Origin: Escherichia coli
Lineage (GTDB): Bacteria; Pseudomonadota; Gammaproteobacteria; Enterobacterales; Enterobacteriaceae
Length of the DNA stretch: 64,000 nucleotides
Direction: 5' to 3' (one strand)
NCBI RefSeq assembly: GCF_024298765.1
Contig: NZ_CP101210.1
The position numbers and the translations under genes were made by a program. The first letter of the stretch is position 1; every line of letters starts with the position of its first letter. The notes under the pieces were generated by a model that worked only from the letters and a program-made list of their open reading frames with translations, was not told where the DNA came from and ran no database searches. Shown piece by piece: positions 19,799 through 24,677 of the stretch.

Positions 19799-19929
19799 AA
19801 AAATTAATAATAATTTATATAACAATGATTCTTATTATCAATATTATGGCGGGCCAGAGCAAGCAGTAATTTGTTGAGAAGACAACAAGTTGCGCAGAAA
19901 TGCCCATCCCGTCAGGAATGGGCACGCAT

Positions 19930-20976
19930 TCAGAAGCGAGTATCTACCGCAGAGGCGAGTTTTTCGACCAGGCGTTCGGTATCTTCCCAGCCCAGACACG
20001 GGTCGGTAATGGATTGACCGTAAGTGAGCGGCTGACCGCCGACGATTTTTTGCGTTCCTTCGCGCAGGAAACTTTCCGCCATAATTCCAGCAATCGCCGT
20101 AGATCCATTGCGGATTTGCTGACAAATATCCTCACAAACTTCTAACTGGCGTCGGTGCTGCTTCTGGCAGTTACCGTGGCTGAAATCCACCACCAGATGT
20201 TCAGGTAAATCAAACTCGTGCAGCGTATCGCAGGCTGCGGCGATATCATCGGCATGATAATTCGGTTTTTTGCCGCCACGCATAATAATGTGGCCATACG
20301 GGTTGCCGCTGGTCTGATAGATGGTCATCTGACCATTTTTGTCTGGCGAGAGGAACATATGGCTGGCGCGGGCTGCGCGGATAGCATCCACGGCAATCCG
20401 CGTGTTGCCATCGGTACCATTTTTAAAACCTACCGGACAGGAGAGTGCCGAAGCCATTTCACGGTGGATCTGACTTTCGGTAGTACGTGCGCCAATCGCG
20501 CCCCAACTGATTAAATCAGCAATAAACTGACCGGTCACCATATCGAGGAACTCAGTCGCGGTAGGGACGCCCAGCTCATTTACCTGTAAAAGTAATTTGC
20601 GCGCCAGCTCCAGACCGTGATTTACCCGATAGCTGCCGTTTAAATCTGGATCGGAGATTAGCCCTTTCCAGCCGACAACAGTTCGTGGTTTTTCAAAATA
20701 GGTGCGCATTACGATTTCCAGCCGTGACTGGTACTGGTTGCGCAGCGACTGCAGACGGGTGGCGTACTCCATTGCAGCGGTGAGATCGTGGATCGAGCAG
20801 GGGCCAATAATGACCAACAGTCGCTTATCTTCACCATTCAGTATTTTTTCAATTCTGCGGCGGGAGTCGGTGACATGGGTGGCGACGCCAGGCGTTACGG
20901 GATACCGTAGCGCGAGTTCGGCGGGCGTTACCAGGCTCTCAATACGCGCAGTACGGAGTTCGTCAGTTCTGTTCAT
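19930..20976 (-). CDS. aroH: DAHP synthase, Trp-sensitive (348 aa)
   Basis: MNRTDELRTARIESLVTPAELALRYPVTPGVATHVTDSRRRIEKILNGEDKRLLVIIGPCSIHD... matches AroH. Confidence 0.95.
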   Translation of the reverse strand: MNRTDELRTARIESLVTPAELALRYPVTPGVATHVTDSRRRIEKILNGEDKRLLVIIGPCSIHDLTAAMEYATRLQSLRNQYQSRLEIVMRTYFEKPRTVVGWKGLISDPDLNGSYRVNHGLELARKLLLQVNELGVPTATEFLDMVTGQFIADLISWGAIGARTTESQIHREMASALSCPVGFKNGTDGNTRIAVDAIRAARASHMFLSPDKNGQMTIYQTSGNPYGHIIMRGGKKPNYHADDIAAACDTLHEFDLPEHLVVDFSHGNCQKQHRRQLEVCEDICQQIRNGSTAIAGIMAESFLREGTQKIVGGQPLTYGQSITDPCLGWEDTERLVEKLASAVDTRF

Positions 20977-21120
20977 TACAAGTCTCAGAAATTTGTTGCT
21001 TCTACGGCAGGACTACCGGGAAGTGATGCGCATCACGATAAACCAATCGCAGCTGATTTCAAGTGCGAGGTGTGTCACACCTCGCCGGGTGGTTAGCATG
21101 ATAACAAAAAAACAAGCTAA

Positions 21121-21140
21121 TGCACTAGTTCTCTAGTACA
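21121..21140. promoter_or_regulatory. Candidate TrpR operator of aroH
   Basis: Palindrome tGCACTAGTtctCTAGTACa with CTAG cores like trp-type operators; upstream of aroH and overlapping the ppsR stop codon. Confidence 0.5.
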
Positions 21141-21966
21141 TTCGACGGCTAAGGCCCATGATATCGAGGATCTTGGTGGCAATCTCTTCTACCGAATAAT
21201 TGGTACTGTTAATCCACGGGATCTGATTTTTACGGTACAACGCTTCCACTTCCGCGACTTCCATCCTGCACTGACGAAGCGAGGCATAGCGACTGTTCTC
21301 CCGACGTTCCTCGCGAATCGCCGCCAGACGTTCCGGGTCGATAGTCAGGCCGAACAATTTATGCTGAAGCGGTTTGAGCGACGCGGGTAGCACAAGATTA
21401 TCCATATCGTCGGCAATAAAGGGGTAGTTTGCCGCGCGGATACCAAACTGCATTGCCAGATACAGACTGGTGGGGGTTTTACCACAGCGAGAAACGCCGA
21501 GCAGGATCACCTGAGCCTGGTCCAGATTGCGTAACGAAATGCCATCATCGTGGGCGAGGGTGTAATCAATCGCAGCAATGCGCGCATCATATTTATTGAG
21601 ATTATTAGGGTTAAGGCCATGGGTACGATGAGCAATCGGCGTTGGATCCAGTTTCATCTCTTGTTGTAGCGGGGCAACCAGCGCCTGAACGATATCCTGG
21701 CAAAAGCCCTCACTTTGCAAGATGATGGCGCGAATCTCCGGCAACACGATGGAGTAGAAGACCAGCGGGCGCACACCTGTCTGGTGATAAATTGCGTCAA
21801 TCTGATCCTTCACTGCCCGTGCACGGCTCTCATTTTCGACAAACGGCAGCGTAATGCTGCTGATAGTGACGGGAAATTGTGACATTACTGCGTGTCCTAA
21901 TACCTCCGCAGTTATTGCCGTACCATCAGAAATATAAAAAACGTGGCGATCAACAGCATTATCCAT
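21133..21966 (-). CDS. ppsR: PEP synthase regulatory protein (bifunctional kinase/pyrophosphorylase), 277 aa
   Basis: 277-aa ORF divergent from ppsA; P-loop-like GVSRCGKT; matches PpsR (YdiA). Confidence 0.93.
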
Positions 21967-22196
21967 TTTGTTCTTCCCGTGATGCAGACATAATTCTATG
22001 AAAGCATAAATTAAAAACGCACAGAAGCGTAGAACGTTATGTCTGGTTTATAAAATGAACCTTCAATTTTATTTTTTATGAAAACAGCATTTCATTTTTA
22101 CGGTTTCGTTTATACCGATGGTTTATGTGGAAATTGTCGAAGAGAGCAGATTTGCGCAACGCTGGGATCAGTCTTAAAAAGTAAAAAAATATATTT

Positions 22197-22212
22197 GCTT
22201 GAACGATTCACC
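22197..22212. promoter_or_regulatory. Candidate Cra (FruR) site in the ppsA promoter
   Basis: GCTTGAACGATTCACC resembles the Cra half-site pair TGAAnCGnTTCA; about 90 nt upstream of the ppsA ATG. Confidence 0.45.
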
Positions 22213-22298
22213 GTTTTTTTCATCCGGTTAAATATGCAAAGATAAATGCGCAGAAATGTGTTTCTCAAACCGTTCATTTATCACAAAAGGATTGTTCG

Positions 22299-24677
22299 AT
22301 GTCCAACAATGGCTCGTCACCGCTGGTGCTTTGGTATAACCAACTCGGCATGAATGATGTAGACAGGGTTGGGGGCAAAAATGCCTCCCTGGGTGAAATG
22401 ATTACTAACCTTTCCGGAATGGGTGTTTCCGTTCCGAATGGTTTCGCCACAACCGCCGACGCGTTTAACCAGTTTCTGGACCAAAGCGGCGTAAACCAGC
22501 GCATTTATGAACTGCTGGATAAAACGGATATTGACGATGTTACCCAGCTTGCGAAAGCGGGCGCGCAAATCCGCCAGTGGATTATCGACACTCCCTTCCA
22601 GCCTGAGCTGGAAAACGCCATCCGCGAAGCCTATGCACAGCTTTCCGCCGATGACGAAAACGCCTCGTTTGCGGTGCGTTCCTCCGCTACTGCAGAAGAT
22701 ATGCCGGACGCTTCTTTTGCCGGTCAGCAGGAAACTTTCCTCAACGTTCAGGGTTTTGACGCCGTTCTCGTGGCTGTGAAACATGTATTTGCTTCTCTGT
22801 TTAACGATCGCGCCATCTCTTATCGTGTGCACCAGGGTTACGATCACCGTGGCGTGGCGCTGTCCGCCGGTGTTCAGCGGATGGTGCGCTCCGACCTCGC
22901 ATCTTCTGGCGTGATGTTCTCCATTGATACCGAATCCGGCTTTGACCAGGTGGTGTTTATCACTTCCGCATGGGGCCTTGGTGAAATGGTCGTGCAGGGT
23001 GCGGTTAACCCGGATGAGTTTTACGTGCACAAACCGACACTGGCGGCGAATCGCCCGGCTATCGTGCGCCGCACCATGGGGTCGAAAAAAATCCGCATGG
23101 TTTACGCGCCGACCCAGGAGCACGGCAAGCAGGTTAAAATCGAGGACGTACCGCAAGAACAGCGTGACATCTTCTCGCTGACCAACGAAGAAGTGCAGGA
23201 ACTGGCAAAACAGGCCGTACAAATTGAGAAACACTACGGTCGCCCAATGGATATTGAGTGGGCGAAAGATGGCCACACCGGTAAACTGTTCATTGTGCAG
23301 GCGCGTCCGGAAACCGTGCGCTCACGCGGTCAGGTCATGGAGCGTTATACGCTGCATTCACAGGGTAAGATTATCGCCGAAGGCCGTGCTATCGGTCATC
23401 GCATCGGTGCGGGTCCGGTGAAAGTCATCCATGACATCAGCGAAATGAACCGCATCGAACCTGGAGACGTGCTGGTCACTGACATGACCGACCCGGACTG
23501 GGAACCGATCATGAAGAAAGCATCTGCCATCGTCACCAACCGTGGCGGTCGTACCTGTCACGCGGCGATCATCGCTCGTGAACTCGGCATTCCGGCGGTA
23601 GTGGGCTGTGGTGATGCAACAGAACGGATGAAAGACGGTGAGAACGTCACTGTTTCTTGTGCCGAAGGTGATACCGGTTACGTCTATGCGGAGTTGCTGG
23701 AATTTAGCGTGAAAAGCTCCAGCGTAGAAACGATGCCTGATCTGCCGTTGAAGGTGATGATGAACGTCGGTAACCCGGACCGTGCTTTCGACTTCGCCTG
23801 CCTGCCGAACGAAGGCGTCGGCCTTGCGCGTCTGGAATTTATCATCAACCGTATGATTGGCGTCCACCCACGCGCACTGCTTGAGTTTGACGATCAGGAA
23901 CCGCAGTTGCAAAACGAAATCCGCGAGATGATGAAAGGTTTTGATTCTCCGCGTGAATTTTACGTTGGGCGTCTGACTGAAGGGATCGCGACGCTGGGTG
24001 CCGCGTTTTATCCGAAGCGCGTCATTGTCCGTCTCTCTGATTTTAAATCGAACGAATATGCCAACCTGGTCGGTGGTGAGCGTTACGAGCCAGATGAAGA
24101 GAACCCGATGCTCGGCTTCCGTGGCGCGGGCCGCTATGTTTCCGACAGCTTCCGCGACTGCTTCGCGCTGGAGTGTGAAGCAGTGAAACGTGTGCGCAAC
24201 GACATGGGGCTGACCAACGTTGAGATCATGATCCCGTTCGTGCGTACCGTAGATCAGGCGAAAGCGGTGGTTGAGGAACTGGCGCGTCAGGGGCTGAAAC
24301 GTGGTGAGAACGGGCTGAAAATCATCATGATGTGTGAAATTCCGTCCAACGCCTTGCTGGCAGAGCAGTTCCTCGAATATTTCGACGGCTTCTCAATTGG
24401 CTCAAACGACATGACACAGCTGGCGCTCGGTCTGGACCGTGACTCCGGAGTGGTGTCTGAACTGTTCGATGAGCGCAACGATGCGGTGAAAGCACTGCTG
24501 TCGATGGCGATTCGTGCCGCGAAGAAACAGGGCAAATATGTCGGGATTTGCGGTCAGGGTCCGTCCGACCACGAAGACTTTGCCGCATGGTTGATGGAAG
24601 AGGGGATCGATAGCCTGTCTCTGAACCCGGATACCGTGGTGCAAACCTGGTTAAGCCTGGCTGAACTGAAGAAATAA
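22299..24677 (+). CDS. ppsA: Phosphoenolpyruvate synthase (792 aa)
   Basis: [34 protein letters not shown]...; PEP-utilizing enzyme motifs ([21 protein letters not shown]); matches PpsA. Confidence 0.97.

Follow-up and report, generated by a model that had tools for sequence, protein, structure and literature searches.

The imperfect palindrome at the 3' end of ppsR (ydiA) is very probably the operator through which tryptophan-bound TrpR represses aroH. In this arrangement, the repressor would occlude an operator-proximal aroH promoter, one operator half-site is shared with the end of ppsR, and a second promoter lies outside the operator. The palindrome is the long-known aroH operator of Escherichia coli, an ordinary regulatory element that had already been described. 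What is added here is a corrected gene geometry, a quantified constraint on the codons and stop of ppsR together with its phylogenetic limits, and the caveat of a second promoter that is probably independent of TrpR.

The operator and its gene context

In the window (the whole 64-kb stretch of E. coli DNA that was analyzed), ppsR (277 aa, positions 21133 to 21966) and aroH (19930 to 20976), the regulated gene coding for the Trp-sensitive DAHP synthase, are both on the minus strand. The gene identities follow from RefSeq annotation and NCBIfam models: ppsR matches the PpsR equivalog NF049928 (430.6 bits versus a cutoff of 350), aroH matches NF009396 (701.7 bits), and ppsA (22299 to 24677, plus strand), the neighbor divergent from ppsR, scores well over its cutoff. 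A sequence-only reading of this DNA had described ppsR as ending convergently with aroH. This has to be corrected, as both the open reading frame list and the RefSeq annotation place the two genes in tandem, with ppsR upstream and a spacer of 156 bp. With a 401-bp probe across the site, the ppsR-aroH junction was found at an identity of at least 95% in 5,422 out of 5,426 complete E. coli genomes, and the probe matches were always annotated as ppsR and aroH. Within ppsR, a strong antisense RNA 3' end has been mapped in strain K-12 (NC_000913.3, position 1787648, minus strand [Adams et al. 2021]), which by its sequence corresponds to approximately positions 21715 to 21775 of the window, plus strand. 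The palindrome sits between ppsR and aroH in the window, the same as in K-12, and the two sequences differ by a few single-nucleotide polymorphisms in the spacer (for example, CAGCTGCG in the window and CAGCAGCG in K-12).

The operator occupies positions 21122 to 21139 on the minus strand, where it reads GTACTAGAGAACTAGTGC in the aroH sense (GCACTAGTTCTCTAGTAC on the plus strand). We take this sequence to be the published aroH operator, which overlaps the -35 region of the aroH promoter. It is an 18-bp imperfect palindrome centered on 21130/21131, in which 4 bp separate the two CTAG cores, and it agrees with the TrpR consensus GTACTAGTTAACTAGTAC at 15 of 18 positions. No other site in the window matches this consensus with three or fewer mismatches; dinucleotide-preserving shuffles gave a mean of 0.01 chance matches, and any match occurred in only 1 of 100 shuffles. 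The operator is also the sole CTAG-N4-CTAG in the window (0.27 expected). The sequence-only reading had proposed a TrpR-operator-like palindrome at 21119 to 21141, upstream of aroH and overlapping the ppsR stop codon. These parts of the reading hold: the 18-bp core falls within that interval, the stop codon TAG (21133 to 21135) lies inside the core, and the assignment to TrpR and aroH is supported by the literature on this pair and by the comparative loci described below.

Both the locus and the sequence are those of the E. coli aroH operator in earlier work (Zurawski et al. 1981, Kumamoto et al. 1987, Klig et al. 1988), and apart from the few spacer polymorphisms nothing differs in kind from the K-12 operator. 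According to RegPrecise-based work (PMC5343134), TrpR negatively regulates aroH, and this regulation is kept only in a few close Enterobacteriales. PMC4381063 cites Hudson 1991 for aroH, and control of aroH by the small RNA GcvB has been tested with a negative result (PMC11878033). Our own full-text literature search for the aroH operator and its sequence gave no match.

A third CTAG-like core, TTAG, can be read downstream of the operator at 21117 to 21120 (minus strand), in the same 8-bp period. This core is not conserved beyond Escherichia and Enterobacter, and judging by its sequence and spacing it is a possible tandem TrpR contact. Studies of TrpR binding are attributed to Kumamoto et al. 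1987 and Klig et al. 1988, and tandem binding is reportedly a subject of the former.

A putative and a mapped promoter of aroH

The gene downstream of the operator is aroH, with a conserved -10-like hexamer 17 to 18 nt past the operator and the sole mapped transcription start 103 bp away, at a second promoter. The putative operator-proximal promoter (21098 to 21127, minus strand) has a -10-like TATCAT at 21103 to 21098, preceded by TGT, and a weak -35 (TAGTGC or AGTGCA, 21127 to 21121) that overlaps the right operator arm. Its start is predicted near 21090, which puts the operator center at approximately -40. A TAnnnT hexamer was present 17 to 18 nt past the operator end in 64 of the 81 listed Enterobacteriaceae loci. 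The distance is 18 nt in the window and 17 nt in most genera, so that the poor -35 falls within the operator's right arm, a layout consistent with classical promoter occlusion. A simple promoter scan missed the operator-proximal promoter because of its poor -35. We presume that this is the classical TrpR-controlled promoter, reportedly described by Zurawski 1981 and Grove & Gunsalus 1987.

The downstream promoter (21027 to 21062, minus strand) consists of a -35 TTGAAA (21062 to 21057), a 16-bp spacer, and a -10 TATCGT (21040 to 21035), and it was found by the promoter scan with 9 of 12 matches. Kim et al. 2012 mapped transcription starts genome-wide in mid-log cells on M9 glucose, and their sole aroH start is at position 1786408 of NC_000913.2 (414 reads; 51-nt 5' untranslated region), which corresponds to window position 21027; no operator-proximal start was present in that map. 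The mapped start lies 103.5 bp downstream of the operator center and belongs to the downstream promoter. An aroH start far from the palindrome, combined with an absence of TrpR binding, had been named in the sequence-only reading as grounds for giving up the operator. Half of these grounds holds, namely the large distance of the mapped start. The TTGAAW element and the -10 of the downstream promoter are conserved in Serratia, Yersinia, Pantoea, and Erwinia, all of which lack the operator, and the downstream promoter is therefore the older of the two. Unlike the TrpR operator, it is conserved throughout the order, and it appears to be the ancestral aroH promoter and, in M9 glucose, the dominant one. 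Its -35 has been lost in the Citrobacter freundii group (loci L007, L010 to L013, and L016) through a 30-bp deletion that leaves a spacer of 126 bp.

In the mechanism that we propose, a tryptophan-bound TrpR dimer would bind the 18-bp operator, and a second dimer may sit next to it in tandem, on the neighboring TTAG. Bound TrpR would then cover the -35 of the operator-proximal promoter and exclude RNA polymerase, and plentiful tryptophan would lead to less Trp-sensitive DAHP synthase being made. The second promoter, 63 bp farther downstream, lies beyond the operator, with a putative CRP site over its start at 21027, and probably supplies TrpR-independent transcription. As the sole mapped start is 103 bp away, the operator likely governs the operator-proximal promoter only, and what TrpR controls is probably just this weaker, upstream promoter. 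Repression of aroH by TrpR is reportedly modest, which fits a block of the upstream promoter alone.

The downstream start is also covered by a perfect palindrome, GTGATGCGCATCAC (21022 to 21037), which matches the CRP core TGTGA-N6-TCACA and is centered 2.5 bp upstream of 21027. Its arms are conserved in Enterobacteriaceae, Serratia, Yersinia, Pantoea, and Erwinia, with variation in the central 4 bp. A CRP chromatin immunoprecipitation sequencing study in the enterotoxigenic E. coli strain H10407 reported a peak at aroH with the predicted sites AGTGATGCGCATCACG and TGCGAGGTGTGTCACA (PMC4287617, Table 1), and these two sites correspond to window positions 21022 to 21037 and 21064 to 21079. The position of the CRP site over the start implies that cAMP-CRP may repress the downstream promoter. 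The aroH peak aside, we know of no functional study of CRP at this gene.

Besides occluding a promoter, or instead of it, TrpR could act as a roadblock to polymerases arriving from ppsR, in which case aroH expression by read-through would be tryptophan sensitive. The two genes are codirectional and only 156 bp apart, no convincing terminator lies between them, the operator is placed exactly at the end of ppsR, and occlusion could not reach the major mapped aroH start, which is too distant downstream. We nevertheless consider a roadblock unlikely. Direct evidence for cotranscription of ppsR and aroH is lacking, the conserved -10-like hexamer at a constant distance from the operator fits occlusion better, and a GC-rich hairpin at 21065 to 21085 may already halt read-through. 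This hairpin (GCGAGGUGUG/CACACCUCGC; -15.6 kcal/mol; z = -3.5) has no U-tract after it, stands between the two aroH promoters, and shares bases with the second predicted CRP site. Escherichia, Salmonella, and Citrobacter koseri have this hairpin, and other genera have a different G+C-rich sequence in its place. By its predicted fold, the hairpin could limit read-through from ppsR or structure the long-leader transcript.

Somewhat less probable still, and in our view quite improbable, is a role for the palindrome as an intrinsic terminator at the end of ppsR, whose RNA hairpin would have 10 stem pairs with UUGUUUUUUUG after it and whose conservation would serve termination. A terminator scan did call it (10 pairs, a loop of 4, and a T-rich tail), and the RNA folds well (-11.4 kcal/mol; z = -3.55), but good folding is a property of any palindrome. 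G-C pairs make up only 3 of the 10 in the stem, and the U-run is set off from the stem, starting 5 nt past it. The T-run is conserved only in Escherichia, Citrobacter, and Salmonella, and it coincides with the promoter spacer. The arms GTACTA and TAGTAC are kept in sequence and show no compensatory change, as is characteristic of a site bound by protein. For the end of ppsR, the supplement of Adams et al. 2021 (a single data set) lists no RNA 3' end. With its AU-rich stem, offset and unconserved U-run, and no mapped 3' end, the terminator was rejected as the main explanation.

Within the 51-nt aroH leader, a highly conserved block (20990 to 21027, minus strand), CATCACTTCCCGG...GCCG..GAAG...TTCTGAGA, can fold into a small hairpin (-8.1 kcal/mol). 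We considered a structured leader built on the hairpin CUUCCCGG...CCG..GAAG and discarded it. Its compensatory changes were apparent by eye only, and RNAalifold yielded 3 pairs with a covariation contribution of -0.22 kcal/mol. A search of positions 19800 to 22400 against Rfam (E of 1 or less) returned no RNA family, for either the palindrome or the leader.

Conservation of the operator and constraint on ppsR

The 3' end of ppsR reads ...CGT CGA ATG TAC TAG. Its last two sense codons and stop, ATG-TAC-TAG (Met276-Tyr277-stop; 21133 to 21141, minus strand), were assigned from the sequence and the open reading frame list. The left half-site, GTACTAG (21133 to 21139), combines the final G of Met276 with TAC (Tyr277) and the amber stop TAG, an overlap of 7 bp, and the same bases therefore code or terminate and also contact the repressor.

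We compared 87 Enterobacterales loci overall. The Enterobacteriaceae sample was drawn from the 80 closest ppsR loci (PpsR identity of at least 90%), with 81 loci counted when K-12 and the window are included. In 77 of these 81 listed loci, the operator begins at one and the same point, 4 nt ahead of the stop codon of ppsR, and it is also present in Klebsiella, our in-family control. In the 77 regular loci, the five bases of the noncoding right half, C-T-A-G-T, are kept in 77, 77, 77, 77, and 76 loci, respectively, whereas the 4-bp operator spacer and the bases outside the operator vary freely. An invariant right half beside variable neighbors indicates that selection acts on the site itself.

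The coding half is restricted in a similar way. The sequence-only reading had suggested that the overlap constrains both genes, and this is borne out by the listed loci: the terminal tyrosine is encoded by TAC in 79 out of 81 and by TAT in 2 (third-base entropy, 0.17 bit). For comparison, the tyrosine 20 codons upstream (codon -21) is encoded by TAT in 56 loci and by TAC in 21 (0.86 bit), and most other 2-fold sites are near 0.9 to 1.0 bit. The stop codon is TAA in 64 loci, TAG in 16, and never TGA; the remaining locus, L036, has CAA at this position. Where the operator is absent or displaced, the codons are free. The two TAT loci are L033, in which the operator has moved, and L036, in which the left half is scrambled.

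The stop codon also covaries with the other half of the operator. A perfect right arm, CTAGTAC, was found in 0 of 15 TAG-stop loci and 53 of 62 TAA-stop loci among the 77 regular ones, counts that ignore kinship and represent about three independent lineages. The pattern in these sequences suggests a trade-off between a TAG stop and right-arm quality, and the anticorrelation may reflect half-site compensation or simply shared ancestry.

Insertions have separated ppsR from the operator in several loci. In L033 and L040 (both Kosakonia-like), the displaced 18-mer, GTACTAACAAGCTAGTAC, is identical at 18 of 18 positions, whereas the flanks differ at 6 of 13 bases just upstream and 5 of 12 just downstream. 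The 18-mer retains its GTACTAA half even though this half is noncoding there. In L033, the operator is shifted by 205 nt (insertion at L033:3335-3536), and the uncoupled ppsR end is now TAT-TAG. In a third locus, L070, a 24-nt insertion frees the operator, which reads GAACTAGTAAGCTAGTAC and thus has two full CTAG cores.

The insertion in L040 (Kosakonia sacchari; L040:3335-4786) places 1.45 kb between the ppsR stop and the aroH operator, and as a result GTACTAA occurs twice, once where ppsR ends and once in the operator. It codes for two small glycine-rich peptides with N termini like double-glycine leaders (MKELTAHEMQYASGG... and MKQLSNDEMQAVSGAG...). By eye, these resemble microcins; a Pfam scan of the two peptides gave no match.

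In L036 (Intestinirhabdus alba; L036:3320-3340), the ppsR end reads ATG TAT CAA TAA, and PpsR ends in MYQ. A CT-to-TC swap destroyed both the old stop and the left half-site, a new TAA stop formed one codon later from the operator spacer, and PpsR gained a C-terminal glutamine. From its sequence, this locus is a possible example of operator decay.

The notion that the left half is conserved through the PpsR C-terminal Met-Tyr alone, with a fortuitous palindrome, draws on the M-[Y/F] terminus of all 120 listed homologues across Enterobacterales, operator-less genera included, but it is refuted, and we give it practically no weight, by the strong preference for TAC, the avoidance of TGA, the invariant noncoding right half, the identical 18-mer whose GTACTAA is retained outside ppsR in L033 and L040, and a chance expectation of 0.01 matches per window.

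Origin of the operator

Outside Enterobacteriaceae, we sampled Serratia, Yersinia, Dickeya, Pantoea, and Erwinia, with one locus per distant genus. The synteny of ppsA with ppsR-aroH was kept in 6 of 6 cases (these five genera plus Klebsiella). The five junctions contained no CTAG, and their best matches to the operator had at least 8 mismatches; the operator is thus absent in the sampled representatives of Yersiniaceae, Erwiniaceae, and Pectobacteriaceae. The ends of ppsR in these five operator-less genera are TTC-TGA, TTT-TAA, TAT-TAA, TAC-TGA, and TAT-TAA.

Judging from these sequences, it was likely in the ancestor of Enterobacteriaceae that an older ppsR end of the form ...ATG-TAY-TAA came into use as a half-site. 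We lean slightly toward a fuller account, in which the operator arose at the base of the family by exaptation of this half-site-like end, and TrpR binding has since dictated the synonymous and stop codon choice in ppsR. Under exaptation, repressor binding would have fixed TAC and excluded TGA. Separate switches to a TAG stop would have taken place in Escherichia, the Citrobacter freundii group, and Franconibacter; there, the amber codon would restore a full CTAG core and coincide with a degraded right arm. If true, this would be a clean natural case of a stop codon being selected by the repressor of a neighboring gene.

Relation to known systems and implications

The operators of trpEDCBA (GTACTAGTTAACTAGTAC-like) and trpR share the 18-bp design of the aroH operator, in which GTAC/GNAC arms flank two CTAG cores separated by 4 bp. 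The overlap is with the -10 region in the trp operator and with the transcription start in the trpR operator. Unlike these two, the aroH operator overlaps a -35, lies partly within a coding sequence, and belongs to a gene with a further promoter beyond the operator. Transcription factor sites in the 3' ends of upstream genes in compact bacterial genomes are similar in their dual-use bases and suppressed synonymous variation; compared with such sites in general, the overlap at aroH is just 7 bp and, among the families sampled, specific to Enterobacteriaceae.

As a textbook TrpR target that existing annotation already shows abutting ppsR, the aroH operator has little discovery value. It does illustrate dual use, with a synonymous site and the identity of a stop codon both held fixed by a DNA-binding protein that acts for the following gene. 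The aroH start that is used most, in the one condition mapped, is outside the reach of TrpR. Recoding the ppsR amber stop, as in a TAG-free E. coli, alters the left half-site, and a C-terminal tag on PpsR either alters this half-site or splits it from the right half; both changes may derepress aroH.
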